Below are positions 4,122 to 50,014 of a DNA stretch of 64,000 bases, in pieces; within the stretch, counting starts at the first letter, position 1; each line of letters starts with the position of its first letter. Made by a program: the position numbers and the translations under genes. This DNA comes from Burkholderiales bacterium. Lineage in GTDB: Bacteria > Pseudomonadota > Gammaproteobacteria > Burkholderiales > SHXO01. The notes under the pieces are model-generated. The model was not told the DNA's origin. It did no database searches and worked only from the letters and a program-made list of their open reading frames with translations. The stretch spans positions 40,167 to 104,166 of the forward strand of contig DAIQQA010000001.1 in the NCBI GenBank assembly GCA_036787045.1, given 5' to 3'.

Positions 4122-4315
4122 CTGAACGCCAAGGACGCAAAGGACGCCAAGGAAAGCCGGAAGGCTGTATCGAGAGGCAACGGAGCGTGCGTCGTTCACA
4201 GCGGGAATCGGCCGGCCGCTTCAGCTCCAGCCGAACCGTTATCGCGCTCCACTACGAGGCCCTCGTTCCCCGTTTTGCGCTTTCCCGTGGCGTCCTTGGC
4301 GTCCTTCGCGTTGAG
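4122..4315. repeat. MITE/REP-like inverted-repeat element (CCAAGGACG-type arms)
   Basis: The left arm is 4122-4158 (ctgaacgccaaggacgcaaaggacgccaaggaaagcc). The reverse complement of the right arm (4279-4315) is ctcaacgcgaaggacgccaaggacgccacgggaaagc. Confidence 0.88.
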
Positions 4316-4334
4316 AGGCTTTCTCTGTTGGAAA

Positions 4335-5033
4335 TTATCGCCGCACGGTCGCTGCACTCTGCCCGAACAGGAACTTCCTCGCCTCGTCGTCGACCACCGG
4401 CTGGCTGCTGATCGCTTTGCCCTTCTCGTAGGCGCGCTCAACCGCAGGGCGTGCTCGGATCGCCTCGAACCACCGTTTGAGGTTGGGGAAGTCGTCCAGG
4501 TCCTGGTTCTGCCGCTTGTGCGACACGGTCCAGGGATAGCAGGCCATGTCGGCTATGGAGTAGTCTCCGGCGACGAACGCGCGGTCTGCGAGCCGCTTGT
4601 CCAGCACCGCATACAAGCGCGATGTCTCCTTCACGTAGCGGTCGATCGCGTACTGGATCTTCTCGGGTGCGTAGTGCAGGAAGTGGTGCGTCTGTCCGGC
4701 CATCGGCCCGAGCCCGCCCATCTGCCAGAACAGCCACTGCATCACATCGACGCGCTGGCGCAGCTGCGCAGGGAGAAACCGCCCGGTCTTCTCACCCAGA
4801 TAGACCAGGATCGCGCCTGACTCGAACACGGACAGGGGCGGCCCGCCGTCGGCGGGAGCATGATCGACAATTGCCGGCATGCGGTTGTTGGGGGAGATCG
4901 TCAGGAAGTCCGGTTGGAACTGCTCGCCGCGCCCGATGTTCACCGGCTTGATGGTGTAGGGCAGCCCGGTCTCCTCGAGGAAGATGGTGATCTTGTGCCC
5001 GTTGGGTGTTGGCCAGTAGTAGAGGTCGATCAT
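4335..5033 (-). CDS. yfcG: Nu-class glutathione S-transferase / GSH-dependent disulfide reductase, YfcG-like
   Basis: It aligns by eye along its full length to E. coli YfcG (MIDLYYWPTPNGHKITIFLEE..., ISPNNRMPAIVDHAPADGG, FESGAILVYLGEKTG, WLFWQMGGLGPM). Confidence 0.85.
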   Translation of the reverse strand: MIDLYYWPTPNGHKITIFLEETGLPYTIKPVNIGRGEQFQPDFLTISPNNRMPAIVDHAPADGGPPLSVFESGAILVYLGEKTGRFLPAQLRQRVDVMQWLFWQMGGLGPMAGQTHHFLHYAPEKIQYAIDRYVKETSRLYAVLDKRLADRAFVAGDYSIADMACYPWTVSHKRQNQDLDDFPNLKRWFEAIRARPAVERAYEKGKAISSQPVVDDEARKFLFGQSAATVRR

Positions 5034-5042
5034 AGGTCGTAA

Positions 5043-5075
5043 GGCGTGAGGGGTGAGGGGTCAGGAGCAAGGGGA
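5043..5075. repeat. Solo microrepeat arm (GGTGAGGGG units)
   Basis: The sequence is ggcgtgaggggtgaggggtcaggagcaagggga. It is related to the reverse complement of 31681-31718. Confidence 0.65.
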
Positions 5076-5113
5076 TGCGGTCGACGAGGCTTGCTCCGCG
5101 GCCCAATGCGTAC

Positions 5114-5791
5114 CTACGCGTCGTCGACGGCAATGATGCGCTGCGCGACGACGCCCAGGTCGGGCCCGACGATGTCGGGCGGGTCGAAGAGCGGGTCGAG
5201 GACCATGCCGGGACGGGCGATGAACGCCGCTCTGCATCCCGCCCGCATCGCGCCCGCCACGTCCCAGGAGTGTGCTGCGACGAGGCGCACGTCTGCGGGC
5301 GCTACGCCGAAGCTGTCGGCGGCGTGCCGGTAGACCTCGGCCGCCGGCTTGAGGCGGTGCACGGCGTCCACGGACAGCATCTTGTCCAGGTGAGGGGCGA
5401 TGCCGGAGTTGGTCAGCTGGGCCTCCGCGACTGCCGGTGGCGAGTTCGTCAGGGCAGCGAGACGGAATTCCGCCGCCTTCAGCCGCTGGATCGCCGGCAG
5501 CACATCGGGGTGAGGCGGGAGCGTGCGCATGCCGCCCAGTATCGCCCGCGCATCGGCGTCGGACAAGACCACGCCGCGCCGGGCCGCCACCATCTCCAGC
5601 GCCGCACGGCCCACTTTGCCGAAGTCGGAATAGGGTCCGGTCACCACGGTGAGCAGCGCGCTCTGCAGCACCTGCCCGAACCACGGGTACAGCACCTCGC
5701 CGTCGCCAAACACCCGCTCGAACTGCGGCTGCAATGCCCGCAGGTCGAGCAGGGTTTCGTTGACGTCGAACACGATCACTCGCTTGCGCAT
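5114..5791 (-). CDS. HAD-superfamily hydrolase, haloacid dehalogenase type II-like
   Basis: HAD motif I is VFDVNETLLD, followed by LTNS and a later AAHSWDV block. ATG 5791 is preceded by GGAGG. The ORF-track extension to 6025 was rejected. Confidence 0.85.
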   Translation of the reverse strand: MRKRVIVFDVNETLLDLRALQPQFERVFGDGEVLYPWFGQVLQSALLTVVTGPYSDFGKVGRAALEMVAARRGVVLSDADARAILGGMRTLPPHPDVLPAIQRLKAAEFRLAALTNSPPAVAEAQLTNSGIAPHLDKMLSVDAVHRLKPAAEVYRHAADSFGVAPADVRLVAAHSWDVAGAMRAGCRAAFIARPGMVLDPLFDPPDIVGPDLGVVAQRIIAVDDA

Positions 5792-5849
5792 CCGGCCTCC
5801 TTTCCTGTCCCCTGGATCGGGGTCCAGGGCAGGCTCCGATGAGGTTGAG

Positions 5850-6893
5850 TCAGGGAATGATCCGCTCGGCACGGAACCCGGCCAGCAGGCGCAGAAACAT
5901 TTCCTCGGTATCGACGGATTCGCAGAAGCCCGCCCGGCGCGCCTTGCCCATGTCGGAGACAATGTCATAGTCGGAGCCGAACACGAAATCGCCGAAGCCC
6001 CAGGCGGCGATCTGCTCGTAGGCATAGGGCGCGAGGCCGTGCCTCGCCACGATCCGGTCCCACACCGGACCCTTGTCCGCCATGAAGCGGGTAAGGCTGA
6101 TCTGGCGCGGCGGCGCCAGCTCCATGTCGAAGAAGCGCGCGAAGCGGGGCCACAGGTTTTCCCAGCGGATCAGGTCGCCGTTGGTAATGTTGAAGGCCTG
6201 GTTTGCACAGTTCGGCACGGTGGCCATCCAGACCAGAGCCTTCGCCAGCAGCGCCGAGTCGGTGCACTGATACAGCGAACGGTAAGCGCCGGGCTTGCCC
6301 GGAAAGCTCAGCGGCAGCCCCAGTTCCTTCGAGATCGCAGCGTAGACGGCGATCACAGTCGACAGGTTCATCGGGTTGCCCACCGCGAAGCCGCAGATCG
6401 CGTGCGGTCGCGAGGCGGACCACGTCCAGCGCTTGCCCTTATGGCGCGCCTCCAGGAAATCCTGCTGCGAGTAGTACATGTTGGGCGGCATGTGCCGCGG
6501 GTCGGTCTCTTTGGCCGGCGTCTTGAACGGCCCCAGATGGCTTCCGTACCACTTGGTGCCCTCGACCAGATGAACGTGCTGCAGGTCTGGCGACGCGGCC
6601 TCCAGGGCATCCAGCAGGTTCACCAGCATCCCGGTATTCACCGCCACCAGTTCCTGCTGGTCCGGTCGCTCCAGGTAGGCGGCGTAGAACGCGTGAGTGA
6701 TGTCCCGGAGCGCGCCCAGCTTGTTCCTGCAGTCGGACGGATCGGTCAGGTCGGCCGCAACGTGAAGATAGTCGCCCGGCACGTCGGGCTTGCGCCGCGA
6801 CACGGCGACGACATCCCAGTCACCCCGCTCGAGCAGATGCATGAGGAGATAGCGGCCCACTATCCCAGTGGCGCCAGTGACGAGTGCTCGCAT
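5850..6893 (-). CDS. NAD(P)-dependent SDR-family oxidoreductase (progesterone-5beta-reductase/PRISE-like extended SDR)
   Basis: The protein starts MRALVTGATGIVGRYL (Rossmann GxxGxxG), is about 347 aa and has an extended SDR layout. The upstream part of the track ORF lies in repeat DNA. Confidence 0.8.
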   Translation of the reverse strand: MRALVTGATGIVGRYLLMHLLERGDWDVVAVSRRKPDVPGDYLHVAADLTDPSDCRNKLGALRDITHAFYAAYLERPDQQELVAVNTGMLVNLLDALEAASPDLQHVHLVEGTKWYGSHLGPFKTPAKETDPRHMPPNMYYSQQDFLEARHKGKRWTWSASRPHAICGFAVGNPMNLSTVIAVYAAISKELGLPLSFPGKPGAYRSLYQCTDSALLAKALVWMATVPNCANQAFNITNGDLIRWENLWPRFARFFDMELAPPRQISLTRFMADKGPVWDRIVARHGLAPYAYEQIAAWGFGDFVFGSDYDIVSDMGKARRAGFCESVDTEEMFLRLLAGFRAERIIP

Positions 6894-6908
6894 TCGGCGA
6901 TGTAAAGC

Positions 6909-6956
6909 GGTGAAGGGTGAGGGCGTGAAGGGCGAAGGGGGAAGGGGGAAGGGTAA
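6909..6956. repeat. Purine-rich microrepeat arm (GTGAAGGG/GGCGAAGGGGG units), inverted relative to 7071-7189
   Basis: The sequence is ggtgaagggtgagggcgtgaagggcgaagggggaagggggaagggtaa. Its reverse complement begins TTACCCTTC, like the arms at 7071 and 7118. Confidence 0.8.
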
Positions 6957-7070
6957 TCCAGCGACGCTGATTGCGCCAGCCTGGCGGGGACTGGGGTGCA
7001 GCGCTACCCGCGATAGAACCAGGTCCTGGTCTCCAGTCGCACGCTGGGCACTACCCTTTGCTCCCACGCG

Positions 7071-7103
7071 TTACCCCTTCAGGCCTTCACCCCCCTTCCC
7101 TCG
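7071..7103. repeat. Pyrimidine-rich microrepeat arm (TTACCCCTTCAGGCCTTCACC...)
   Basis: Read directly from the sequence. It is complementary in pattern to 6909-6956. Confidence 0.7.
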
Positions 7104-7120
7104 TCGGCCTTCCTTAGTTA

Positions 7121-7189
7121 CCCTTCACGCCTTCACCCTTCACGCCTTCACCCTTCACGCCTTCACCCTTCACGCCTTCACCCTTCACC
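7121..7189. repeat. Tandem repeat, 15-bp unit CCCTTCACGCCTTCA x 4.6 copies, ending 9 nt before the gor start codon
   Basis: There are perfect copies at 7121-7135, 7136-7150, 7151-7165 and 7166-7180, and a partial copy at 7181-7189. Confidence 0.95.
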
Positions 7190-7198
7190 AGCTTCGCG

Positions 7199-8572
7199 AT
7201 GACCAAACACCTCGACCTACTCACCATCGGCGGCGGCAGCGGCGGCGTGGCCGTCTCCAACCGAGCCGGCTCGTACGGCGCTAGGTGCCTGTTGATCGAG
7301 AGGGGGCGCCTCGGCGGCACCTGTGTGAACGTCGGTTGCGTACCCAAGAAGGTGATGTGGAACGGGGCCCAGATCGCGGGTGCACTCGAGGATGCGGCCG
7401 ACTACGGCTTTCGCGTCGGGGCGCACGAGTTCGACTGGGCGACGCTGAAGCGCAACCGTGACGAGCATGTGCGCGACCTCAACAAGCACTACGCACGCTA
7501 CCTGGCGAGCAACAAGGTCGAGGTCGTCGCCGGCGCTGCCCGCTTCGTCGGCCCGAAAACTGTCGAGGTCGGCGGCGAGCGCTATAGTGCCAACCACGTG
7601 GTCGTCGCCACCGGCGGGCACCCAATCGTCCCGGACGTCCCCGGCGCGCGCTACGGCATCACTTCGGACGGCTTCTTCGAGCTGGAACGCTCGCCGCGCA
7701 AGGTGGCCATCGTGGGCGCCGGATACATCGCCGCGGAGCTGGCGGGCGTGCTGCACGCGTTGGGCAGCGAGGTGACAATCGTCCTGCGCCGGGAACGCTT
7801 GCTCGGCACCTTCGACCCCCTGCTGCGCGAGACGCTCATGGAGCAGATGCGCGGCGACGGCATCGAGCTCGTCACCAGCACGCCGATCATCGGCCTGGAG
7901 AAGGACCATCACGGCCATCTGACGCTGTTGTGCGGCAGCGGTACGCGCCTGGGCGGATTCGACACCGTCATTTGGGCAATCGGCCGTGCGCCGTCCACTC
8001 GCGACCTCGATCTGCCCGCCACCGGACTGGCACCGGACGAACTGGGCTTCGTGAGCACCGACGAATACCAGCAGACTGCCGTGCCGGGTATTTATGCAAT
8101 CGGCGACGTAACCGGACGGGTGGCGCTAACGCCCGTAGCAATCGCCGCGGGACGGCGACTGGCGGACCGCCTCTTCGGCGGCATGCCGGACTGCAGGCTG
8201 TCCTACGACGACATCCCGACGGTGATCTTCAGCCACCCTCCGATCGGCACGGTAGGGCTTACCGAGCCTGAGGCCGCCGAGCGCTTCGGCGCGGATTCGC
8301 TGAAGGTCTACCAGGCCCGGTTCACGCCCATGTACCACGCCTTCACTACGCGCAAGGTGGCGACGGCCATCAAGCTCGTGGTTGCAGGCCCCGAAGAAAG
8401 GGTGATCGGCTGCCACATTATCGGCCCGGGCGCGGACGAGATGCTCCAGGGTTTCGCAGTCGCGGTAAAGATGAGAGCGACCAAGCGCGACTTCGACGAT
8501 ACGGTGGCGATCCATCCGACGGTCGCCGAGGAACTGGTCACCATGCGCACCGCTCGGCCGGCGGCGGTGTAA
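7199..8572 (+). CDS. gor: Glutathione-disulfide reductase
   Basis: [16 protein letters not shown]..., the redox-active site [13 protein letters not shown], and the C-terminal HPT.AEE dimer-interface motif. The length of 457 aa fits. Confidence 0.95.
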
Positions 8573-8624
8573 CGATTCCCCCGGCGAAACTCGTTCAGGA
8601 CGCCCCGGCGAGCCGACAAACTCA

Positions 8625-8776
8625 TTTACCACGAAGGACACGAAGGAACACGAAGGAAATCGTCTGGTACCTTCGGCCACATAACGTGGCAGTCGATGCT
8701 GGTTGCGGCTTCCTTGTCATCCCCGGCCGTTCGGTAGAACGCGACGTTCCTTGTTCCTTGGTGTCCTTCGTGGTGG
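8625..8776. repeat. MITE/REP-like inverted-repeat element (arms of ACGAAGGA-type microrepeats)
   Basis: The left arm is 8625-8662 (tttaccacgaaggacacgaaggaacacgaaggaaatcg). The right arm is 8742-8776 (cgacgttccttgttccttggtgtccttcgtggtgg), and the arms are complementary. Confidence 0.85.
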
Positions 8777-8789
8777 CTGCGGTTGGTTG

Positions 8790-9119
8790 TCAGGCACGCG
8801 CAGAGGGTGGAGGGACCGACACGAACACCTCCCCGTCCACCGTCCGCACCGGGAAGGTCCGGACCTCGCCGCGCTCGGGCGGCTCGACCTCGCCGCTGCG
8901 CAGATCGATGGTCCAGCCGTGGTCGGGGCACGCGACCTTGCACAGATCGTAGAGCACACCCTGCGACAGCGCGGCGCCCCGGTGCGGGCAGCGGTCCTCT
9001 ATGGCGTAAAGCACTCCATTCTCGGCACGGAACACTGCGATGCGGCCTGCGGCAGTGTCCAGCGTTCGCGCCCGGCCATGGGGCAGCTCCTCCTCGTTGC
9101 AGATGCGCAACCAGGCCAT
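8790..9119 (-). CDS. Rieske [2Fe-2S] domain protein (NirD / ferredoxin-subunit-like)
   Basis: Rieske motifs CPHRG and CPDHGW are present. The start is at MAWLRICNEEELP (ATG 9119). Confidence 0.75.
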   Translation of the reverse strand: MAWLRICNEEELPHGRARTLDTAAGRIAVFRAENGVLYAIEDRCPHRGAALSQGVLYDLCKVACPDHGWTIDLRSGEVEPPERGEVRTFPVRTVDGEVFVSVPPPSARA

Positions 9120-9437
9120 CTCAGCGCGCCCGCGTCGCGGCTGAGGCTCGAGGCGTGCGCCGGCGCGCTGCCCGGGGAAGGGCAAGGAGCGGAAGGGGAA
9201 GGCGCGGCGCGCTGGCCGCTCTGCCGGCGAGGTCGGTCATGATCGTGCAAGCAAGCGCGGAAGTTTACCCGTGGTGCATACGCGGGGGTAAGCCGTCTAG
9301 CCCGCCCCCACCTTTGGTGATACCTTTGCCAGCTGCCGGAAGTGCAGCCGCGCCGCACGGCTAGCCCGGAGCGCCGTGCGGGGCGTCCGGGCGGATAGCG
9401 TCAGGCAAATAGAACAACCATCACGCCCGGGGGAGTC

Positions 9438-10838
9438 ATGAGCAACGCGACCGTCAACGAAGCGGTGGAAGTCCAGAAGGGGCACTTCGATCCGTACCAG
9501 CTCGACCCCTCGCACATCCTCGAACCGCCGACCAGGATGCGCGAGATCCTCAAGAAGATCGGCCCGGGCATCATCCTGTCCGCTTCGATCGTAGGCTCCG
9601 GCGAGCTGATCGCCACCACTACGCTGGGCGCCGAGGTGGGCTACACGGTGATGTGGCTCATCATCTTCTCCTGCCTGATCAAGGCGCTCGTGCAGTCGTT
9701 CCTGGGCCGCTACACCATCGCCAAGGGCGAGACCGGGCTGGAGGCGTTCAACCGCATCCCGGGCAGGATCGGCAAGGTGAACTGGGTGGTGTGGGCGTGG
9801 GCGGCGATGGTGCTGGTCACGCTGTTCCAGATCTGCGCCATGTTCATCGGTGTGTCGCAGGCCATGAAGCTGGTCACCGGCATCGAGGTGGTCTGGTGGG
9901 TGCTCGCGTTCTTCGTGCTGACCCTGGTGCTGCTGCTCGGCGGCGCCTACCACCGCATCGAGCGCCTGGCCATGATCAAGGTCGGCGTGTTCACCCTCAT
10001 CACCCTGCTCTCGGCGGTCGTGCTCACGCGCATGCCGCAATACTTCTCCTGGAGCGATGTGGCGCAGGGGATGACCTTCAGACTCCCCGAGAAGGGGCTC
10101 GCCACTGCGCTGGCCGTGTTCGGGATCACCGGCGTCGGGGCGACCGAGCTGTACATGTACACCTACTGGTGCGTGGAGAAGGGCTATGCCCGCTACACCG
10201 GCCCGCACGAGGACAGCGAGGCCTGGCGGCGGCGCGCGCGCGGCTGGATACGGGTCATGAACGTGGATGTCATCTTCTCGATGGTCATCTACACCGTGGC
10301 GACCATCGCCTTCTACCTGCTGGGCGCGGGGATCCTGCACGGCATGGGGCTGGTGCCGGCCACCAGCGACATGATCCCGATACTGTCCAACATCTACACC
10401 GAGACGCTGGGCGGCTGGGCGAAGTGGCTGTTCTACGTCGGCGCGATCATCGTACTGTACGGCACCATCTTCGCGGCCACTGCCGGACACTCGCGCATGT
10501 TCGCCGACTTCATGCGGCTGCAGGGCGCCTTCGAGCACGACGACATGAAGGCGCGCAACCGCTGGCGAGACATCTTCATCGTCGTGCTGACCGTGATCCC
10601 GGTCGGGATGTTCTTCGCCTTCGGCGAGAAACCGGTCGCGATGGTCAAATGGGGCGGGCTGGCCCAGGCATGGACCCTGCCCATCCTCTCCCTCGGCACC
10701 GTGTACCTGATCCGCCGCTATCTGCCCAAGGAGATGAGCGCGACCCCGATCGGCACTGCGTTGCTCTGGATCGGTGCGATCGTCATCACCGGATTCGTGC
10801 TGATCAGCGAAGCGCGCCGCTGGGGACTGTTCGGCTGA
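9438..10838 (+). CDS. NRAMP-family divalent metal cation transporter
   Basis: GPGIILSASIVGSGELIATT motif, roughly 11-12 hydrophobic segments, 466 aa. RBS GGGGGAG lies just upstream of the ATG. Confidence 0.9.
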   Translation: MSNATVNEAVEVQKGHFDPYQLDPSHILEPPTRMREILKKIGPGIILSASIVGSGELIATTTLGAEVGYTVMWLIIFSCLIKALVQSFLGRYTIAKGETGLEAFNRIPGRIGKVNWVVWAWAAMVLVTLFQICAMFIGVSQAMKLVTGIEVVWWVLAFFVLTLVLLLGGAYHRIERLAMIKVGVFTLITLLSAVVLTRMPQYFSWSDVAQGMTFRLPEKGLATALAVFGITGVGATELYMYTYWCVEKGYARYTGPHEDSEAWRRRARGWIRVMNVDVIFSMVIYTVATIAFYLLGAGILHGMGLVPATSDMIPILSNIYTETLGGWAKWLFYVGAIIVLYGTIFAATAGHSRMFADFMRLQGAFEHDDMKARNRWRDIFIVVLTVIPVGMFFAFGEKPVAMVKWGGLAQAWTLPILSLGTVYLIRRYLPKEMSATPIGTALLWIGAIVITGFVLISEARRWGLFG

Positions 10839-11026
10839 CAGACTGGGGTTTCGGGTCTAGGGGCCACAGCACCCAGCTCACACACTGCCCTCGCGGATCG
10901 ACAGATAGGTCTCGTTCCCGCTTGCGGGAGGGCGTAGCGTGAGGGTTGGCGTCCCCGCCTCGTCACAGGCCGGGCATGTTTTTTTGGTATCGCGCCTCAA
11001 GGGCGCATTCAGCGGAGCGACACGCA

Positions 11027-11374
11027 ATGAGCATCGAACGCAAGCACATCGGGCCGCGGCTGTCCCAGGCCGTGATTCACGGCGACACCGTGTATCTGGC
11101 CGGTATCGTGGCCGACCATCCCATTCCCGATGCCGCCGCGCAGACCGGCCAGATTCTGGATCAGATCGACAAGCTGCTCGCCGAGTGCGGCACGGACAAG
11201 AGCAAGATTCTCATGGCCACCATCTGGCTGTCCGATGTGCGCTACTACGACGAGATGAACTCGGTGTGGGACAAGTGGGTGGCAGCCGGCAACACTCCTG
11301 CGCGCGCCTGCGTCGAGGCAAAGCTCGCGCAGCCCAAGTACCTCATTGAGATTCGCGTCGTGGCCGCGCGCTAG
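11027..11374 (+). CDS. RidA/YjgF/TdcF-family reactive-intermediate deaminase-like protein
   Basis: GDTVYLAGIVA..., QTGQILDQIDKLL, ARACVEAKL, about 115 aa. I chose the internal ATG at 11027. Confidence 0.85.
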   Translation: MSIERKHIGPRLSQAVIHGDTVYLAGIVADHPIPDAAAQTGQILDQIDKLLAECGTDKSKILMATIWLSDVRYYDEMNSVWDKWVAAGNTPARACVEAKLAQPKYLIEIRVVAAR

Positions 11375-13435: not shown

Positions 13436-13492
13436 CCCGGGCGTGAGGCGCGAGGGGTCCCTGCTCACCAACTTGGGCCGTTGCGACTGGGC

Positions 13493-13536
13493 CTCTTGCA
13501 GTCCTTAGCGACCTTTGCGTCCTTGGCGGTGAGAGC
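13493..13536. repeat. Solo microrepeat arm (CCAAGGACG type)
   Basis: The reverse complement, gctctcaccgccaaggacgcaaaggtcgctaaggactgcaagag, matches the arm style at 4122-4158. No partner arm was found nearby. Confidence 0.6.
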
Positions 13537-13665
13537 TTGTAGAGCTAGCCTCGAGCCTCGCGCCCGATCTGTATCCGTTTTGCATAAATCTTGCTTCCCT
13601 GGTCCACCGTTTGAGCGCCCGACAGGGCATTCGTGGACCGTACCACTGTGACAGGAGGAAACGCC

Positions 13666-29005: not shown

Positions 29006-29062
29006 TCCGGTTTTCTTCGTGTCTTCGTGGTGAGCGGTCGAACTAGTGTGTCTCACCACTAG
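29006..29062. repeat. Repeat module TCCGGTTTTCTTCGTGTCTTCGTGGT...TAGTGTGTC....CACTAG (copy 1)
   Basis: It is almost identical in layout to 37352-37399 and overlaps the parC stop codon (29059-29061). Confidence 0.8.
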
Positions 29063-31563: not shown

Positions 31564-31590
31564 GGCCCTCTCCCGTCAAGGGAGAGGGCC
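31564..31590. repeat. REP-like hairpin GGCCCTCTCCC-GTCAA-GGGAGAGGGCC
   Basis: A perfect 11-bp stem, read directly, in the parE-parC spacer. Confidence 0.85.
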
Positions 31591-31639
31591 GCAAAACGCG
31601 CCTCGCGCGCCTGCCCATCTGCCGTCACCTTCACCCCTG

Positions 31640-31662
31640 CCCTCTCCCGTCAAGGGAGAGGG
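31640..31662. repeat. REP-like hairpin CCCTCTCCC-GTCAA-GGGAGAGGG (second copy)
   Basis: It has the same stem and loop as 31564-31590 and lies 76 nt downstream of it. Confidence 0.85.
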
Positions 31663-31680: not shown

Positions 31681-31718
31681 GCCTCGCCCCTCACTCCTGA
31701 CTCCTCACTCCTCACGCC
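31681..31718. repeat. Solo microrepeat arm (CCTCACTCC units), same subfamily as 5043-5075 in opposite orientation
   Basis: The reverse complement ggcgtgaggagtgaggagtcaggagtgaggggcgagg compares with 5043 ggcgtgaggggtgaggggtcaggagcaagggga. Confidence 0.7.
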
Positions 31719-34559: not shown

Positions 34560-34955
34560 ATGGCGGCACTGACCCAGGAACAGACCCGGCGCCTGCGGAA
34601 GGCGCTCGACGAGCGCTATGCGCTGCTGATCGAGGAGGTGCGCACCGAGCTCGAGCGCTCGGGCGAACAGCACTACATCGACCTCGCGGGGCGTGTAACA
34701 GACTCGGCGGACGAGGCGGTGGCGGATGTCCTCGCGGACCTGAACGCGGCCATCATCGACCGCCAGGTCCACGAGATCCGGGACATCGAAGCCAGCCGCC
34801 AACGGATGGAGGCCGGCACCTACGGGCGATGCATCGATTGCGGAACGGACATCGGCTTCGAGCGGCTGATGGCCTATCCCACCGCCAAGCGCTGCATCCA
34901 GTGCCAGAGCCAGCGCGAGAAGGGCTACGCGCACGGCGGCACGCCGCGGCTGTAG
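34560..34955 (+). CDS. DksA/TraR-family C4-type zinc-finger protein
   Basis: CIDCGTDIGFERLMAYPTAKRCIQCQ (CxxC-N17-CxxC), a coiled-coil N-terminal part, and RBS AAGGAG. Confidence 0.85.
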   Translation: MAALTQEQTRRLRKALDERYALLIEEVRTELERSGEQHYIDLAGRVTDSADEAVADVLADLNAAIIDRQVHEIRDIEASRQRMEAGTYGRCIDCGTDIGFERLMAYPTAKRCIQCQSQREKGYAHGGTPRL

Positions 34956-34970: not shown

Positions 34971-35187
34971 TGAACCACGGAGGACGCGGTGGACACGGAG
35001 GAAAAGCGATAAGCGCTAGGATCGAGATAGGTCGGCGCATCCCACGCACCGTTGGCCTAACGGGCCCAACAGCAAGTGCGCAGGTACGCTACCGCGCAAG
35101 AACCGAAGCGTGCCGTCCCAGCTTCCCGTGGCACCATTGGTCCGTTCTCTTCGAAGTCCTCCGTGTCCACCGTGTCTCCGTGGTTCA
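34971..35187. repeat. MITE/REP-like inverted-repeat element (ACGGAGGAC-type arms)
   Basis: The left arm is 34971-35006 (tgaaccacggaggacgcggtggacacggaggaaaag). The reverse complement of the right arm (35149-35187) is tgaaccacggagacacggtggacacggaggacttcgaag. Confidence 0.88.
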
Positions 35188-35955: not shown

Positions 35956-36092
35956 TGAACCGCGGAGGACGCAGAGGACGCGGGGTGAATTGATGTATTG
36001 CCTAGACCGATCCGCTCTTCATCGGGGTGAGCCCGATCCGATGCAGAAGCCCGTTGTCGCGCCTCCGCGTCCTCTGCGTCCCCCGCGGTGAA
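35956..36092. repeat. MITE/REP-like inverted-repeat element (GCAGAGGAC-type arms)
   Basis: The left arm is 35956-35985 (tgaaccgcggaggacgcagaggacgcgggg). The reverse complement of the right arm (36062-36092) is ttcaccgcgggggacgcagaggacgcggagg. Confidence 0.85.
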
Positions 36093-37351: not shown

Positions 37352-37399
37352 TCCGGTTTTCTTCGTGCCTTCGTGGTAATTAGTGTGTCGCAGCACTAG
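37352..37399. repeat. Repeat module TCCGGTTTTCTTCGTGCCTTCGTGGT...TAGTGTGTC....CACTAG (copy 2)
   Basis: It has the same layout and orientation as 29006-29062. Confidence 0.8.
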
Positions 37400-43097: not shown

Positions 43098-43150
43098 GCG
43101 GCCAAGCTTAGCCGATCTGACCGATCACGAAGCCACCGGACGGCGTCCGC

Positions 43151-44002
43151 TCAGAGCCGCGCCGCCTGGAACGTATTGCAGCCCTCCAGATCCCCGGTCT
43201 CCAGCCCGTGCCGAAACCAGCGTGCACGCTGCTCCGCGCTGCCGTGAGTGAAGGAATCGGGAGAAACGTAGCCCTGGGCGCGCATCTGCATGCGGTCGTC
43301 GCCGATCTGGCTCGCTGCATTCAGCGCCTCCTCCACGTCGCCTTCCTCCAGGATCTGGCGCGAGCGGTCTGCGTGGTGCGCCCAGATCCCCGCCAGGCAG
43401 TCTGCCTGCAGTTCCATCCGCACCGAGAGCTCGTTGCCCTCTGGCTGTGAGACGCGCTGTTGGGCGCCGCGCACCTTGTCTGCGATGCCGAGCAGGTTCT
43501 GCACGTGGTGCCCGATCTCGTGGGCGATGACATAAGCCTGCGCAAAGTCGCCTGGGGCCCCGAAGCGCTCGCGCAGGTCGCCGTAGAAGTCCAGGTCGAT
43601 GTACAGCTTGCGATCCGTCGGGCAATAGAACGGGCCGACCGCAGCCTGGGCGAACCCGCAGGCCGACTGCACCGCGCCGGAAAACAGCACCAGTGTCGGC
43701 TCCTGATATTGCGCGCCGACCTGCTGGAACAACGCGCCCCAGGTGTCCTCCGTGTCCGCCAGCACCACGGAGATGAACTCCTTCATGGGGTCGGGACCGG
43801 TCTGGTCGGACTGCGGCGCAGGCGTCTGGGTGTTGCTTTGCGTACCCATGCCCTGAATCAGCAGCCTGGGATCGACGCCGAAGACCAGCGCCAGGACGAT
43901 GATCACGATTGCGCCGAGGCCGCCCCCGGCCAAGCCCGGCCATACACGCATGCCGCGGCGGTCCTCGACGTTCCCGCTCCTTCTGCCGGATTCCCAACGC
44001 AT
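43151..44002 (-). CDS. ypfJ: Neutral zinc metallopeptidase, YpfJ family
   Basis: MRWESGRRSGNVEDRRG, one TM segment, FYCP.D..(I/L)Y(I/L)DL.F, and the HExxH motif in VIAHEIGHHVQN. Confidence 0.9.
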   Translation of the reverse strand: MRWESGRRSGNVEDRRGMRVWPGLAGGGLGAIVIIVLALVFGVDPRLLIQGMGTQSNTQTPAPQSDQTGPDPMKEFISVVLADTEDTWGALFQQVGAQYQEPTLVLFSGAVQSACGFAQAAVGPFYCPTDRKLYIDLDFYGDLRERFGAPGDFAQAYVIAHEIGHHVQNLLGIADKVRGAQQRVSQPEGNELSVRMELQADCLAGIWAHHADRSRQILEEGDVEEALNAASQIGDDRMQMRAQGYVSPDSFTHGSAEQRARWFRHGLETGDLEGCNTFQAARL

Positions 44003-44015
44003 GCTTAGTTTCCCC

Positions 44016-44870
44016 CTATTTGAAGCTGACCGTTACACTCGGGTCGCCGGGCAGCCCAAGGTACTGCACGGTAACGGTCGTGCCCGGCTTGGTGGGCTGG
44101 AACGGCAGGAAGGCGCCAAGGCTGAGCAGGTCCCCTGCCTTCAGGCCCACACCGGAGCGCTCGAGGTCGTGCGCGAGCCACATGGCGGAGCTGAGCGGGT
44201 GACCCATGATCGCCGAGCCGGGACCGCGGGCGAGCTCGCGCCCGTCCTCGATCAGCACGACCGTCATGTTCGCCAGCGCGTCGATGAACTCGTCACTGGT
44301 CTGCATCGGGATGGGAGCGCCGAGTGCGCCCATGCGCGCACCCACATTGATCGCCACCAGCGCAGGGCCGTTGAGCGTCTCCTTCGAGTCGAGCAGCAGA
44401 TCCGGCAGCTCCATGAACGGCACGACGAAGGACACGCTCTCCGCCGCCTCGCGGGCCGTGCGCGCGCGCAGCAGCCCCGCAGGATCCTCCACCTCCACGA
44501 TGAGGTCGGCCTCCCATAGCGGGCGGGCGCCGAACTTCGCCGGCAGCTGTGCCCCGCTTCTCACCAGCATGTCGCGCAGCAGGAAGCCGCGCACCGGGTG
44601 ATCCACGCCGAAGCGCACCTGCACGGCGGGATTGGTCAGCCCCGCTTTGTACCCTGCGACGGGCCCGAGCGATTCACTCAGTCGTCGCACGACCTTCGAC
44701 TGTGCGCACAGGGCATCCTGCATGGTCAGGTCGGGACCGAAGCCCCGGCTTACCTGCAGGTCGCGGTAGTCGGACACAAAGGCGGCGACCTGGATATCGT
44801 CCGGGCAGGCGGCATGGACGCTGGCCGCGAGGCACGTCAGCAATAGAAACGCAACCGCGCTGCGGTACAT
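44016..44870 (-). CDS. 2-keto-4-pentenoate hydratase-like (FAH-superfamily hydratase/decarboxylase) with Sec signal peptide
   Basis: RBS GAGGA precedes ATG 44870. Signal peptide MYRSAVAFLLLTCLAASVHA. The GYKAGLTNPAVQ..FGVD.PVRGFL block is typical of MhpD-type hydratases. Confidence 0.7.
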   Translation of the reverse strand: MYRSAVAFLLLTCLAASVHAACPDDIQVAAFVSDYRDLQVSRGFGPDLTMQDALCAQSKVVRRLSESLGPVAGYKAGLTNPAVQVRFGVDHPVRGFLLRDMLVRSGAQLPAKFGARPLWEADLIVEVEDPAGLLRARTAREAAESVSFVVPFMELPDLLLDSKETLNGPALVAINVGARMGALGAPIPMQTSDEFIDALANMTVVLIEDGRELARGPGSAIMGHPLSSAMWLAHDLERSGVGLKAGDLLSLGAFLPFQPTKPGTTVTVQYLGLPGDPSVTVSFK

Positions 44871-45051
44871 GGAGTCCTCTCTTCGTTGACGCTCGCGGCC
44901 AAGTTTACTCCTACAGTCAACCGACGCCGCGCGCTGCGCCCGAAGCTCGGCCCAAGCTCTGGCAGCGACATCGACACCGCAGCCGCAAGGCAAGCGACGA
45001 TGCGGGTGAGCCGATGTGCCGGACACCCGACTGCATGAGCTGGGGGACATC

Positions 45052-45546
45052 TCACAGGCGCGCCTTGGGTGGTGGCGCCAGCACTTCGTCGAGAACCTCG
45101 CGCACGAACGCACCGACTCGCGGCTCCTTGGACGCGCGCGGCCCCGCAACGTTGAGCACATGCGGGCGGTGCGCGTCCAGGAATGCGCGCAGCAGGCTGG
45201 GCGCATCCACGTGGGGATGCAAGTGCAGGCAAGGCTTGCGCCGGCGCCTGGCGCACTCACGCGTCTCACGCGACCCCCCGGACAGGCGCTTGGAGAGCGA
45301 AAAGATCACAGTGGCGTCGCTGTCGCGCACGTTCCAGTCTGTCCGCTGACGGTACTCGGCCGACGGTGTTTCGGTGAGCGGATAGCGCGGATCCAGCGGA
45401 CCGTGCTCGGCCCGCCGACCGCGCGGGCACCAACCGCCGCAGCGGAGGCCGTGATCGAGCGCCCAGTCCAGGGCGCAGCGGTCCACACCGGTCTGTCCGC
45501 CGGAAACAAGCTTGAGCGCCTGCCAGCGAGCGCGGCTTTCAGTCAT
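45052..45546 (-). CDS. YpsA/'putative molybdenum carrier' SLOG-family protein
   Basis: LKLVSGGQTGVDRCALDWALDHGLRCGGWCPRGRRAE is the hallmark N-terminus of that family. The internal ATG 45546 was chosen. Confidence 0.65.
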   Translation of the reverse strand: MTESRARWQALKLVSGGQTGVDRCALDWALDHGLRCGGWCPRGRRAEHGPLDPRYPLTETPSAEYRQRTDWNVRDSDATVIFSLSKRLSGGSRETRECARRRRKPCLHLHPHVDAPSLLRAFLDAHRPHVLNVAGPRASKEPRVGAFVREVLDEVLAPPPKARL

Positions 45547-45727
45547 CGTGGTCCATCGGGTTTCGCGAGAAAGCGGCATCAGCTTCGCACCAACTCGTGT
45601 GAACACCACCGCTCGGAGCACTTTCAGACGTTGGCGCGAGCCGGCTCCACATGGCGGGATAGCCGCAGTAGTATTGTGCACGGCGGGAGATTGCAGCCCC
45701 AGACCCATGGATATCCCACATCACAAA

Positions 45728-46435
45728 ATGAGGAGACTGACAGTGAACATCACTCTGACGTGTACGCGGGCATCCGCGCTGGCCCTCGCCCTTACTCATC
45801 TGCCCCTTGCCGTATCGCCCGCAAATGCAGCAAGCGCGCAGGAAGAGCACGTCATCATGGCTGAGGCGACGCTGGCCAATTTCCTGCGCGACCCGAACAT
45901 GTCCTGGCTTCAGGAGAACCTCCACCGTGTGCATGGCCTCATCATCGTGCCCAAAGTCGTGAAGGCAGGGTTCATCTTCGGCGGTTCGGGCGGGCGTGCC
46001 GTCTACGTCGCGCGCGACGCCAAGGCGGGCAAATGGGTCGGACCTGCCTTCTACAATGTATCGACCGCGAGCGTGGGCTTCCAGATCGGGGTGGAAGTGG
46101 CCGAGGTGGTGGTCATGGTGATGTCCGAGAAGGGAGCCAACTCCCTGCTCGCAACCAGTTTCAAGATGGGCGGGGACGCGAGCGTTGCCGCCGGCCCCGT
46201 CGGGGCGGGAACCAAGGCGAGCGTCGAGGAGGACTTCATTTCCTTCAGCCGCTCGAAAGGCCTCTACGGCGGTCTCAATTTCGAGGGTAGTGTGGTGAAG
46301 ACGGCGGATGACTGGAACCGGGGCTACTACGGCAAGCCGGTGCTCCCACCCGACATTCTGCTCACGCAGTCGGTACATAATCGGCAGGCCGACGACCTGT
46401 TGAAGATGGTGGCAGGGGCTGCGCAACCGAGGTAG
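45728..46435 (+). CDS. SYLF (Ysc84/DUF500) lipid-binding domain protein, secreted
   Basis: Signal-like N-terminus. The pattern GLIIVP.VVKAGFIFGGSGGRAV...W..PAFY......S.GFQIG......V.V is typical of SYLF. An alternative GTG start is at 45743. Confidence 0.8.
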   Translation: MRRLTVNITLTCTRASALALALTHLPLAVSPANAASAQEEHVIMAEATLANFLRDPNMSWLQENLHRVHGLIIVPKVVKAGFIFGGSGGRAVYVARDAKAGKWVGPAFYNVSTASVGFQIGVEVAEVVVMVMSEKGANSLLATSFKMGGDASVAAGPVGAGTKASVEEDFISFSRSKGLYGGLNFEGSVVKTADDWNRGYYGKPVLPPDILLTQSVHNRQADDLLKMVAGAAQPR

Positions 46436-46493
46436 CGCCAAGAAGCGATTCTCGTCGCCGACCTCGATGGGGCGTGCTGCCAGGGTGGCTGCG

Positions 46494-48254
46494 TCATCCC
46501 GGTGACGAAGCGCTGCGCCTGGTCTCCAACTCGCCGAGCTCCAGTTCGCGCTGCTGGCTGACCACAGCATTCACCGCCTCCGCTGGCGTACCCACGCCTT
46601 CCAGCACACGCGCTGCAAGCTGGAGGCTGGACTCGACGGTCTCCGGCACAACACCGGTAGCGCCGGCCTGCAGCAACGTTTTCGCGTGGACTGCATCCCG
46701 CGCCCGCGCGAAGACCGGCAGCCAGGGCCATTGCCTGCGCACTGCCTCCACCGTGTGCGAGGCAGCCAGCGGGCTGTCCATGGTGATGACCAGGGCCTGT
46801 GCAGACTCGACGTGAGCGCGGCGCAGGATGTCGGCACGGCTGGCGTCGCCGTAGAACACCGGCAGCCCCGCGGCACGCTGTGCACCGACCGCCGGACCGT
46901 CGAGATCCAGCGCAACGTAGGGCAGGTTCTGAGCGTCGAAGATGCGCCCGAGCATCTGCCCCACACGTCCGAACCCGGCGATGATCACGTGCCCCTCGAG
47001 GCCTTCGATCTCTGGGCTCCCGCCGGCTCCGCCGACGTGCGTGCGCTGCTCGATGAAGCCGGCGAGTCGACGTGCCAGATGCGCCACCCCGGGCGTGATC
47101 GCCATCGTCAGGCCGGCGACAATGAGCATGAACTGCGCGGCATCCTCGGCCACCAGCCCGCGCATCGTGGCGATCCCCACCACCACGAACGCGAACTCGC
47201 CGGCCTGGCCGAGGAGCAGACCGGCCTCTGCGGCGGTATGCCGGGGAACCCCGAACGCGAGACACAGGCCGGTGGTGATAACTGACTTGGTCAGGAACAG
47301 ACCGATCACCGAAGCCGCCAGCCAGAGCGGCTCCTGTGCCACCGCCCGGAAGTCGATCGCCATCCCCACCGACATGAAGAACAGGCCGAGCAGGAGACCC
47401 TTGAACGGCTCGATATCGACTTCGATCTCGTGACGGAACTCCGTTTCGGCCAACAGCAACCCAGCGAGGAACGCGCCCAGCGCCATGGAAAGGCCCACGG
47501 CCCCCGTCACTGCAGCAGTCCCGATGATAGTGAGCAGCGTCGCAGCGACGAACAGCTCCGGGCTGCGCGCGGCGGTCACCAGCCGGAACAGCGGCCGCAG
47601 CACCAACCGTCCGATCATCAGGATCAGCACGATCGCGCCCAGCGCCTTGCCGACGGAGACCAGCAGCGCGACGCCGACGTCGCCGTCAAGGCGGGCGCCC
47701 AGCATGCCGAGCAGGAACAGGATCGGCACCACGGCCAGATCCTGCAGAAGCAGTACGGCGAAGCTCGTGCGGCCCAGTGTCGTTGCGACCTGGCGCCGCT
47801 CGGTCAGGAGCTGCATGACGATGGCAGTCGAGGACAGCGCCAGGCACGAGCCGAAGATGATCGAGGCCTGTGGGCTATTGCCGAATCCCCAGGCAATTGC
47901 CCCGATCACGGCCGCAGTGATCACGACCTGCAACGTCCCCAGGCCGAACACCAGCCGCCGTAGCGCCCACAACCGCTCCACGGAAAGCTCCAGCCCGATC
48001 ATGAACAGCAGAAAGATCACCCCGAGAGACGCCAGGCCCCTGACGCCGTCGATGTCGTCGATGACGGCGTAGCGCAGAAGACCGATGTCCTGTGCGAACA
48101 GCCCCAGGCCGTACGGACCCAGCATCGCCCCCGCGCCCAGAAAACCGAGCACCGGACTGACACGCAGGCGGTGGAACAGCGGCACGATCACGCCGGCGGC
48201 GATCAGGAACACCACGATCTCGCGCAGATAAGGGACGTGCTCGTGAGCTTCCAT
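46494..48254 (-). CDS. CPA2-family monovalent cation:proton antiporter with KTN/TrkA-N domain (second Kef-like paralogue)
   Basis: SPVLGFLGAGAMLGPYGLG, GRTSFAVLLLQD and IIAGFGRVGQ. The start is at MEAHEHVPYL (48254). Confidence 0.85.
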   Translation of the reverse strand: MEAHEHVPYLREIVVFLIAAGVIVPLFHRLRVSPVLGFLGAGAMLGPYGLGLFAQDIGLLRYAVIDDIDGVRGLASLGVIFLLFMIGLELSVERLWALRRLVFGLGTLQVVITAAVIGAIAWGFGNSPQASIIFGSCLALSSTAIVMQLLTERRQVATTLGRTSFAVLLLQDLAVVPILFLLGMLGARLDGDVGVALLVSVGKALGAIVLILMIGRLVLRPLFRLVTAARSPELFVAATLLTIIGTAAVTGAVGLSMALGAFLAGLLLAETEFRHEIEVDIEPFKGLLLGLFFMSVGMAIDFRAVAQEPLWLAASVIGLFLTKSVITTGLCLAFGVPRHTAAEAGLLLGQAGEFAFVVVGIATMRGLVAEDAAQFMLIVAGLTMAITPGVAHLARRLAGFIEQRTHVGGAGGSPEIEGLEGHVIIAGFGRVGQMLGRIFDAQNLPYVALDLDGPAVGAQRAAGLPVFYGDASRADILRRAHVESAQALVITMDSPLAASHTVEAVRRQWPWLPVFARARDAVHAKTLLQAGATGVVPETVESSLQLAARVLEGVGTPAEAVNAVVSQQRELELGELETRRSASSPG

Positions 48255-48374
48255 CCCGGGATAATAGCAAGCGCGTGCTCGACCCAGGTTCGCGGCTGTG
48301 CGCGCGAACGACACGTCTGTGCCGTTCTGCTATAGTCGCCCGCCCCTCCGCCGGCCACGCGCCGGCAGCCTCGC

Positions 48375-49814
48375 ATGGACCAAGCCGCCGCAGCCGCACA
48401 GCCCTTGCCTCGCCCGTTGCCGGCGCTGCGCCATGACGCGGACGGACGCCGCCGCGTGGACTACCGGGCCATGGTCGCTCTGGCCGCACCGTTGTTCCTG
48501 AACAGCAGCCTGCAAGCGATCCTCAACCTCACCGACACCTGGTTTCTCGGCCGCATTTCCACTCACGCGACCGCGGGGGTGGGGGCGGTGTACTGGTTCG
48601 TCATCGTCTTCGTGCTGATCTTCGGCGGCGTGGCCATGGCGGTGCAGACGCTGGTGGCGCAGGCGTACGGTGCGGGCGAACGGGAATCCGCCGCGCGCAT
48701 CACCTGGAGCGGCCTGTGGGTGGTGGCTCTCATGGCGCCGCTGTTCATCGCTGTGGCGCTGGCAGGCGGCCCGATGCTCGCACCGTTCGGGCTGGCGCCG
48801 CAGGTGCACACGCTCGCGATGGAGTTCTGGGGCCCGCGCATGGGCGGGGCGGTAGCCGGTGTGGCACTGTGGACCGTATCGAGCTTCTTCAACGGCATCG
48901 GACGCACCAGCGTGACGCTGGTCATGATGATCTGCGTCGCGGTCGCCAACGCGGTGCTCAACCAGATCTTCATCTTCGAGCTGGGCCTGGGCATAGCAGG
49001 CGTGGCCTGGGCCACCACCGCGGCCCAGGCGATCGGATTCGCCCTCGGACTGGCGGTGTTCCTGAGCCGCTCGGTGCGTGGGGAGTATCGGTCGCAGCAT
49101 TGCTGGCACCCGCGCCGCAGGGCGATGGTCAGAGCGCTCACGCTGGGCGTGCCCATGGGACTGCTGCCGGCAGCCGATCTTCTGGGGCTCGCGCTGTTCC
49201 AGCTGATGCAGGCGGGGCTCGGCACGGTCGCAGGTGCGGCGACGCAGATCGTGATGATGATGACCTCGCTCGCCTACATGCCGGCGGTGGGCATCGCCAT
49301 AGCCGGGACCACGCTGGTGGGACAGTCCATCGGCGCCGGCGATCGCGACTGGGCGCATAAGATGGGCAACTCAGCGATCAAGCTCAACGTCGCCTACATG
49401 GGACTGGTGAGCCTGGTGCTGGCACTCGCCGGCCCGTGGCTGCTGCCGCTTTTCGTCACGCCCACCGACCCCAACGCCGGCGCCGTGGTGGGGACCGCGG
49501 CGATGCTGCTGTGGATCGGCGCGGCGTATCAGGTCTTCGACGGCGTCAACCTCAGCGCCGGGTTCGCCCTGCGCGGCGCCGGCGACGTGCGCGTGCCCAC
49601 GCTGCTCGTCGTGCTGGTGTCGTGGCTCGGCTTCGTCCCGCTTACCCACATGCTGAGCTTCGCGCCGGGACAAGGCTGGGTGCACTTCCTGCCGCAGTTC
49701 GGCCTGGGCACCGTAGGCGGGTGGAGCGCGCTTCTGTTCTACACAGCCGCGCTCGGCGCGGTGATGTGGCTGCGGTGGCAGTCGGGTGCCTGGCGGAAGA
49801 TCAGGTTGCGCTAG
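48375..49814 (+). CDS. MATE-family multidrug/toxic compound efflux transporter
   Basis: 12-TM layout, with an N-terminus ...LAAPLFLNSSLQAILNLTDTWFLGR typical of MATE/NorM-like proteins. Confidence 0.88.
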   Translation: MDQAAAAAQPLPRPLPALRHDADGRRRVDYRAMVALAAPLFLNSSLQAILNLTDTWFLGRISTHATAGVGAVYWFVIVFVLIFGGVAMAVQTLVAQAYGAGERESAARITWSGLWVVALMAPLFIAVALAGGPMLAPFGLAPQVHTLAMEFWGPRMGGAVAGVALWTVSSFFNGIGRTSVTLVMMICVAVANAVLNQIFIFELGLGIAGVAWATTAAQAIGFALGLAVFLSRSVRGEYRSQHCWHPRRRAMVRALTLGVPMGLLPAADLLGLALFQLMQAGLGTVAGAATQIVMMMTSLAYMPAVGIAIAGTTLVGQSIGAGDRDWAHKMGNSAIKLNVAYMGLVSLVLALAGPWLLPLFVTPTDPNAGAVVGTAAMLLWIGAAYQVFDGVNLSAGFALRGAGDVRVPTLLVVLVSWLGFVPLTHMLSFAPGQGWVHFLPQFGLGTVGGWSALLFYTAALGAVMWLRWQSGAWRKIRLR

Positions 49815-49836
49815 CGCTGCTACCCCCTAGCCCCAA

Positions 49837-50014
49837 CACACAGACGCAGAGAACGCAGAGGAAAACGAGGGCGAGAGGGATTCCAGGGTCACGCGGAGCA
49901 GTGAGCTTTGCTGACCGGGTGCGCGACGGACTGAGATCGCCCTCGAGGATCCGGCTCAGCGACGTCGCACTCCTGGAGGTTTTCTCCGCGTCTTCTGCGT
50001 CTCCGCGCTGGGTG
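49837..50014. repeat. MITE/REP-like inverted-repeat element (ACGCAGAGRA-type arms)
   Basis: The left arm is 49837-49867 (cacacagacgcagagaacgcagaggaaaacg). The reverse complement of the right arm (49978-50014) is cacccagcgcggagacgcagaagacgcggagaaaacc. Confidence 0.85.

Follow-up and report, generated by a model that had tools for sequence, protein, structure and literature searches.

Paired tandem-repeat arrays in operon spacers of a Burkholderiales genome share their ends with small nuclease and four-helix-bundle gene cassettes

Paired intergenic arrays of short tandem units are already known from Geobacter, Xanthomonas and Nostoc, and small selfish intergenic cassettes are likewise known as a kind. 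In Geobacter metallireducens, paired tandem octa-, nona- and heptanucleotides were described as classes 1-4 of putative binding sites for a global regulator, sequence features read as sites of IHF/HU or of a regulator, with no link made to cargo genes or to mobility (Aklujkar et al. 2009, PMC2700814). The heptamers GGGAATC and GGGGA(C/T)T that recur in Xanthomonas and Nostoc, with 70-75 convergent inverted pairs per Xanthomonas genome, were read as G-quadruplex formers, and no mobile-element association was found for them (Rehm et al. 2015, PMC4692102). Here we analyse a family of intergenic inverted-repeat elements in a 64,000-nt stretch of a Burkholderiales genome (the window, G000:C90:40167-104166, where G000 is the genome carrying it, an assembly of 333 contigs, 5.55 Mb, 65.9% G+C and 98% completeness), and we propose, with a probability of about 0.6, that these elements are gene-less relics of selfish small cassettes residing in operon spacers.

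With the Geobacter sites the elements have in common three to five tandem units of 7-9 nt, an arrangement in opposite-strand pairs at variable distance, an intergenic location and several classes per genome, while the Geobacter units (GTTGCTYN, TCTCCGTS, MTYCTGA) differ from those of G000 (PMC2700814). Like the Xanthomonas and Nostoc heptamers, they are over-represented between co-directional genes and lie less than 50 bp from stops and starts (PMC4692102). The quadruplex reading does not transfer, because most G000 units are without a G3 tract; such units as GCCAAGGAC, ACGGAGGAC and GTGAGGC have only GG and not four or more G3 tracts. The 23S rRNA intervening sequences are similar in that a PF05635 gene, whose family name comes from them, lies within an insertion whose ends pair as a stem, but the G000 insertions are located between protein-coding genes and not in rRNA helices. 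An rRNA intervening sequence was ruled out for all window elements on the same ground, and Rfam at gathering thresholds reported no rRNA or other family within the window.

Two further systems are comparable. Repetitive extragenic palindromes (REP), their inverted doublets (REPIN) and the associated tyrosine transposases (RAYT) also present dispersed intergenic inverted doublets capable of forming hairpins, with many gene-less copies and a rare gene-bearing copy with the same flanks; unlike them, the elements described here go with a PD-(D/E)XK nuclease or a four-helix bundle instead of a Y1 HUH transposase, their arms are tandem arrays, and their spacers of 70-190 nt are unique. Free-standing homing endonuclease genes are similarly small nuclease genes wedged between conserved co-directional genes across phyla, and at a given site related genomes likewise have them intact, degenerate or not at all, but such genes do without terminal inverted arrays and leave behind no armed shells. 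PDDEXK_3 proteins are not known to have homing activity; for the GxxExxY cargo the analysis shows a predicted nuclease fold and a conserved D/E/K triad.

The elements were located in the window by an inverted-repeat scan, a tandem-repeat scan and direct reading of the sequence, which together recovered all six two-armed elements of the original prediction, an earlier reading of this DNA. A complete element consists of an outer motif (TGAACC, CTCAAC or TTACC), two to four tandem purine-rich units, an A-run and a core, followed by the complement of these parts in reverse order, and according to the inverted-repeat scan its terminal inverted repeats have arms of 20-49 nt that are 74-96% complementary. 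The six elements, and the gene-bearing cassettes of the same genome with which we compare them, are as follows.

E1, 4122..4315: gene-less and two-armed, with 9-nt units and a unique core of ~112 nt; left arm 4122-4162, TGAAC GCCAAGGAC GCAAAGGAC GCCAAGGAA, right arm 4275-4315; between two co-directional GST genes on the - strand.
E2, 6902..7189: heptamer type built of GTGAAGG units, with a left arm at 6902-6956, a complementary arm further in at 7071-7112 and a right arm at 7118-7189 that forms a perfect 15-nt x 4.6 array; between divergent epimerase/PRISE and gor genes.
E3, 8617..8785: 9/10-nt units ACGAAGGAC ACGAAGGAAC ACGAAGGAAA; between convergent gor and Rieske genes.
E4, 34971..35187: 9-nt units, TGAACC ACGGAGGAC GCGGTGGAC ACGGAGGAA, complement at 35156-35187; between dksA/traR-type and SDR genes, both on the + strand.
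E5, 35956..36092: 9-nt units, TGAACC GCGGAGGAC GCAGAGGAC; the core measures 81 nt; in the spacer that separates the SDR stop from the gene that follows.
E6, 49827..50017: 9-nt units GCAGAGAAC GCAGAGGAAAA, complement at 49980-50017; between MatE and AlgH-like genes, both on the + strand.
GxxExxY cassette, G000:C90:35750-36200, 4 kb upstream of the window: arms GCCAAGGAC GCAAAGGAC GCCAAGGAA, the same three units as in the arms of E1; ATG 8 nt past the arm.
GxxExxY cassette, G000:C110:3730-4265: GCAAAGGAC-type arms.
GxxExxY cassette, G000:C289:5370-5690: GCCAAGAC arms around a truncated gene.
Four-helix-bundle cassette, G000:C144:29302-29722: GTGAGGC heptamer arms around the sole PF05635 gene of the genome (29398-29685), whose GTG start lies inside the last unit of the arm.

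Thus gene-bearing cassettes of two types share their ends with the window elements. Units of 8-10 nt of the form C-R-C-N-R-A-G go with the GxxExxY PD-(D/E)XK nuclease (TIGR04256 / PF13366), and heptamer units go with the four-helix-bundle '23S rRNA intervening-sequence' protein (TIGR02436 / PF05635), GxxExxY protein and four helix bundle protein being the respective NCBIfam names. A full-length cassette carries one gene of roughly 120 aa between its arms, and the PF13366 genes of G000 are bracketed by 8/9-mer arms in three cases out of three. In the window, E1 and E3-E6 carry the 8-10-nt-unit arms of the GxxExxY-cassette type; E2 and the heptamer solo arms listed below have the architecture of the four-helix-bundle cassettes without the gene, and no GxxExxY gene or detectable remnant of one was found inside any window element.

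The same association is seen far beyond this genome. Across the order, inverted arms of period 7, with an inner length of 360-460 nt and a unit that changes between cassettes, flank 24 of 30 PF05635 genes, and inverted arms of the window's own subfamilies flank 25 of 29 PF13366 genes, the 8-10-nt periodicity being clear in 20; one such GxxExxY gene, in genome G058 (locus L086), is bracketed by arms of the ACGAAGGAC / 10-mer / ACGAAGGA kind, like those of E3. Among GxxExxY loci of many bacterial phyla and two archaeal lineages arms were found in 52 of 74, against 15 in a control with the right flank flipped, and in Planctomycetia, Phycisphaerales and Alphaproteobacteria the arms match the ACCACAGAGRCACAGAG pattern of G000. 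CACAGAG-armed cargos from different phyla are mutual nearest relatives, and arm class changes 36 times on the cargo tree, compared with 48.9 (minimum 40) in 2000 shuffles, in a kind of test that relatedness inflates. Arm type and cargo gene are, therefore, inherited together across phyla. The start codon, assigned heuristically, is at most 10 nt from the inner end of the arm, or inside it, in about half of the cassettes, and in 35 of 45 cases the cargo points the same way as the gene upstream of it.

The reading frames of some cassettes extend into the arms. The GxxExxY gene on C90 (35785-36310) has no stop at the usual C-terminus and reads through the 3' arm in an open frame of 460 aa that ends in a scaffold gap of Ns, so that this gene may be extended or starting to decay. 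In several Burkholderiales cassettes (L071-L076, L073, L083) the nuclease frame is open from an ATG of the outer terminus (ATGAACC...); translation from there would take in the arm (MNRRGAEAQR..., ...HRDTETQR...), and the C-terminus (...SAPPRLCG) would come from the 3' arm, which may be a real extension or an artefact of gene calling. The ATGAACC terminus is common to these cassettes and to E4 and E5.

The GxxExxY cargo has a conserved GPGxLESxYE motif and a conserved triad D71, E81, K83 (D...ExK), and its structural model, with a mean predicted local confidence (pLDDT) of 94.9, confidently assumes a minimal PD-(D/E)XK nuclease fold. No solved structure matched this protein by sequence; the nearest solved folds to the model are those of Cas4, alkaline exonuclease and lambda exonuclease, with a template-modelling score (TM) of ~0.5 and marginal E-values. 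A fold like that of Holliday-junction resolvases, also considered, was not seen, the nearest ones being of the Cas4 and lambda-exonuclease types. The four-helix-bundle protein of C144 matches Xanthomonas campestris XCC0516 (PDB 2GSC, E = 8e-32), and the host of XCC0516 is the species with the described paired GGGAATC heptamer arrays. The TIGR02436 family includes Avd, the accessory protein of diversity-generating retroelements. In the literature searched both cargo families are of unknown function, as is PDDEXK_3 in PMC3424549, and they have been met wedged between cas genes and inside rRNA insertions; that literature, searched for both protein families, holds no description of armed cassettes, of tandem-unit stems or of parallel GxxExxY cassettes.

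The number and polarity of the arms in the whole genome show that the elements are not a chance product. A search of G000 with subfamily patterns, up to three substitutions allowed, returned ~644 arms, that is ~215 pairs and ~215 unpaired arms, which by arithmetic corresponds to ~0.7% of the genome. On either strand the purine-rich array comes first in ~215 pairs and the opposite order occurs once; a purine-rich array followed by a pyrimidine-rich one within 400 nt occurs 96 times genome-wide versus two cases of the reversed order, and a 25-nt pattern of the 8-mer arm has 90 matches versus a single one for the reversed pattern. Discrete subfamilies can be told apart among the arms, namely CACAGAGR, CACGAAGR and CGCCAAGA (8 nt), CACGGWGGA and CGCMAAGGA (9 nt), GTGAGGC and GTGAAGG (7 nt) and several smaller ones. 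The unit sequence had been described as differing between elements; these differences trace to a handful of subfamilies with tens of copies each, which coexist in G000, and not to variation of every single element.

The positional bias of the elements agrees with the earlier view of one architectural family of intergenic inverted repeats with tandem-unit arms: 122 of 148 elements lie between co-directional genes, compared with 2697 of 3977 spacers (68%) in the background (z ~3.8 by arithmetic). Since the median distance is 12 nt after the upstream stop and 23 nt before the next start, the elements take up what without them would be a short spacer of an operon. They had been said to occupy almost every larger spacer; in the first 50 kb they fill roughly half of the larger ones. 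Some elements are nested in the cores of others, and larger arm pairs enclosing genes in G000, considered as possible bigger elements, were mostly neighbouring arms of different elements.

An unbiased genome-wide scan for inverted repeats with periodic arms gave 160 loci, from which the cores were compared. The cores are 70-190 nt long and mutually unrelated even inside one subfamily; 125 of 160 have no other match in G000, and the others match residual arm sequence or a nested palindrome of the REP-like kind. In the cores ATG codons are not over-represented close to the arm. No two cores are alike in spite of the near-identical arms, so copy-and-paste of gene-less elements is not seen. The arms are also better conserved than the cargo: L071 and L076 have identical 26-nt arms around proteins that are, by estimate, roughly 65% identical.

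The arms of one element had been reported to match each other much better than those of other elements, and this had been taken for compensatory change, a sign that the hairpin matters. The better match exists, with a score of 22.4 for the own partner versus 9.5 for arms in general, but it is an effect of subfamilies, within which the own partner scores 23.2 and other partners 20.9; among the 31 members of the CACAGAG family the own partner has a median rank (0.50). Because the difference nearly vanishes inside subfamilies, arm co-variation reflects the lineage identity of the cassette ends, and it is subfamily membership, not compensatory hairpin evolution. Folding did return very stable hairpins (E5 as DNA, -42.3 kcal/mol, z = -6.8; E1 as RNA, -103 kcal/mol, z = -5.1). 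Selection on an RNA stem is nevertheless not visible, as transition mismatches in the arms show no G:U bias (67 sense versus 78 antisense, p = 0.41), and the importance of the hairpin at the RNA level found no backing here.

Comparison with the closest species studied (G021, genes ~80-85% identical, syntenic over most of the window) shows how these sites change. Its element at the site of E1 belongs to the same subfamily but differs entirely in the core, and 26 of 27 arm bases match G000 while the flanking genes are ~80% identical; at the sites of E3 and E4 there are elements of other subfamilies, ACAGAGGAC-type at E3, and the 13.4-kb spacer holds a clear CGAGGCN heptamer pair. No element is present at the site of E5 (35 nt versus 201 nt in G000), and the E6 spacer contains unrelated sequence without arms; four of about seven compared spacers are occupied in both species. 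At the site of the C90 cassette G021 has GCAGAGGAC arms around only the 5' third of a GxxExxY gene; a CTGTGTC microhomology marks where this fragment meets the 3' arm, and together with the C289 cassette it makes two truncated-gene intermediates. Gene truncation thus happens in place, and sites are gained, lost and re-occupied. Two genes next to elements, the dksA/traR-type gene by E4 (34560-34955) and a GST gene by E1 (3412-4098), have no counterpart at the syntenic places of G021, and such small gene gains and losses coincide with element-bearing spacers.

On a wider scale, a metagenome scan found no elements beside more distant SDR orthologues (<=74% identity), 71 upstream and 63 downstream, which makes the elements lineage-specific insertions. 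The 8-mer arm has a patchy presence in 46 of 301 genomes of the order and in four of the six other genomes of the genus that were searched. On the narrowest scale, in contigs that share more than 99% identity and come from a single NCBI assembly and several metagenomes of wetlands, E1-E5 are unchanged except for a few single-nucleotide polymorphisms and 27/30-nt unit indels, and E4 is unchanged in ~10 assemblies of such strains. The right arm of E2 (7118-7189) differs between strains that are more than 99% identical (L101, L103) by a 30-nt (two-unit) deletion or a longer array, the longer array sitting 9 nt upstream of the gor start codon; the short contig L103 has a wholly different sequence upstream of the E2 array, which could be a repeat chimera or a rearrangement.

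Besides the six elements, the window contains the following arms and degenerate copies.

5043..5075: solo arm of purine-rich heptamers (unit GTGAGGG), located between the start of the GST gene and the stop of the HAD-hydrolase gene; no complementary partner within 400 nt.
~13441..13570: degenerate heptamer element, read directly, whose CGAGGCG units span 13441-13458 and 13548-13570.
29006..29062: solo arm that belongs to the CACGAAGA 8-mer subfamily, in the spacer that separates the parC-like stop from the following gene.
31681..31718: solo arm of pyrimidine-rich heptamers, CCTCACT units, beside two REP-like palindromes.
37352..37399: solo arm of the CACGAAGR 8-mer subfamily.

All five solo arms that had been predicted are present, except that the 9-mer arm at 13493-13536, first listed as solo, sits inside the core of the degenerate heptamer element. 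The flanking genes throughout, named from public gene calls and Pfam, are two GST, HAD hydrolase, epimerase, gor, Rieske, DksA/TraR zinc-finger, SDR, MatE, AlgH-like, ParC-like and ParE-like genes. Both CACGAAG-type solo arms (29030-29062, 37375-37399) are followed by the same small palindrome ACTAGTG-N8-CACTAGT (7-bp stem), pointing to a longer unit common to both or to a terminator-like hairpin that goes with arms of this type. The REP-like palindrome, in two copies at 31566-31662, reads CCCTCTCCC-N5-GGGAGAGGG, elsewhere then followed by TTGGGGTGAGGGG; it forms a distinct dispersed family, dozens of whose copies occur in the genome, including some nested within cores of heptamer-armed elements.

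From these data it is reasonable to suggest the following history, which agrees with the mobile-DNA-derived appearance noticed originally. The cassettes would be selfish and would ride host operon read-through transcripts, the purine-rich, Shine-Dalgarno-like arm probably providing a ribosome-binding site for the cargo. Transposon subterminal repeats, and REP sequences for RAYT transposases, serve as recognition sites, and by analogy the iterated units may be putative recognition sites of the cassette's own protein. Loss of the gene by internal deletion would leave two arms around a short non-coding core, and this gene-less structure may persist as a hairpin-forming shell. A number of observations weigh against such a history. 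Core lengths cluster near 100 nt and are not spread from 0 to 400 nt; an all-vs-all blastn of the 160 cores found none that is shared, apart from leftover arm and the nested REP-like repeat; six-frame searches of the 160 gene-less cores with hidden Markov models of both families found no cargo remnant (best 2.7 bits, about that of shuffled sequence), and the cores have no codon-position GC periodicity. Without remnants and periodicity, and with lengths clustering at ~100 nt, simple decay of a resident gene fails for most cores. The arms within a family are nearly identical although the cores are unlike, and such conservation requires selection, homogenisation or some other process. For CACAGAG, CACGGWGGA and CACGAAGR, the largest subfamilies, no cognate gene-bearing copy was found in the 98%-complete assembly; no recent movement was seen for the two cargo proteins looked up, each of which has one and the same genomic context wherever it occurs in public assemblies, and strains more than 99% identical share the same elements.

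Some of these difficulties would disappear if the arms were made or renewed by a templated process, such as repeat addition at both 3' ends or gene conversion limited to the arms and driven by a nuclease, the gene-less elements being its independent products or targets and not decayed cassettes. Such a process would suit arms that are near-identical within families around unrelated cores without cargo remnants, the strict 215 to 1 polarity, a unit number that varies within a population, the arm variants peculiar to each genome and the different subfamilies at orthologous sites. We consider it improbable nonetheless, as no enzyme for it has been identified, two clear deletion intermediates make at least some cores gene remnants, and the conserved outer termini (TGAACC, CTCAAC, CTCACC) with inner A-runs resemble fixed ends; still, near-identical arms with unrelated cores may leave room for arm-limited homogenisation or templated arm-making. 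The chance is similarly slim that the elements serve the host, as sites of global DNA-binding proteins, which is what Aklujkar et al. 2009 (PMC2700814) proposed for theirs, or as mRNA hairpins that terminate, stabilise or process transcripts in the manner of REP sequences, bacterial interspersed mosaic elements (BIME) or RNase III substrates, with the small genes as passengers. Their place in operon spacers near stop and start codons, the stability of the hairpins, the arms of E1 that are more conserved between the two species than the genes around them (26/27 bases versus ~80%) and the four of about seven spacers occupied in both would all fit a host function. It is the cargo gene, and not the host, that arm type tracks across phyla, however, and a host function accords poorly with several arm subfamilies in one genome, with patchy presence even inside a genus, with orthologous spacers of other lineages that lack elements, and with the lack of both element-specific compensation and G:U bias on the transcribed strand.

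Two other explanations we find hardly credible. The original prediction called the elements MITE/REP-like, and as small intergenic terminal inverted repeats in many copies they do look like ordinary miniature inverted-repeat transposable elements (MITE) or REPINs moved by an insertion-sequence (IS) transposase or a RAYT. That assignment fails on the cores, which the copies do not share, and on the arms, which are tandem arrays and not REP palindromes. Any target-site duplication would be at most 2 nt long: flanking direct repeats of at least 2 nt occur in 34 of 160 elements versus 13 in a shifted control, and only four of the 34 reach 3-4 nt. Moreover, the sole Y1 transposase gene of G000 (IS200/RAYT-type, PF01797, C185:1-986, L193) is flanked by a different, perfect 21-nt inverted repeat, TCAGGCCTATACTTTATAGCT / AGCTATAAAGTATAGGCCTGA, which is AT-rich for G000 and unrelated to the arms. 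Inverted repeats around a unique segment of 70-190 nt, often upstream of a gene, with a varying number of array units, could also be imagined as invertible switches in which a promoter is flipped between the arms, or as chance expansions of simple sequence. This is scarcely to be believed: E4 and E5 keep a single orientation across ~10 independent assemblies, most elements are between co-directional genes just past stop codons, and the 215-to-1 orientation together with arm identity across phyla excludes chance. We therefore retain gene-less relics of small cassettes as the preferred explanation of the window elements.

A more far-reaching suggestion, which we regard as rather unlikely but state for its consequences, is that the cassettes and their shells constitute an undescribed class of mobile elements across bacterial phyla and archaea, whose protein, a minimal PD-(D/E)XK nuclease or, in a parallel lineage, a four-helix bundle, would recognise iterated 7-10-nt words in its own inverted ends and spread those ends without copying the core. 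Renewal or spreading of the ends without the intervening sequence would produce gene-less copies with unique cores and arms more conserved than the protein. In any case, near-identical arms with unrelated cores point to spread or homogenisation outside the standard MITE, REPIN and homing-gene models.

For the biology of these bacteria it matters that the elements fragment the G000 assembly and sit in operons beside such essential genes as parC, parE and gor, and that the same arms extend from Burkholderiales to Planctomycetota, cyanobacteria and archaea. The link proposed here would tie the arrays of Geobacter (2009) and Xanthomonas (2015), which have never been explained, to two abundant small proteins, and would name a common source of spurious open reading frames, false CRISPR-like hits and broken assemblies. 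It would also give the TIGR04256 and TIGR02436 families a testable role.

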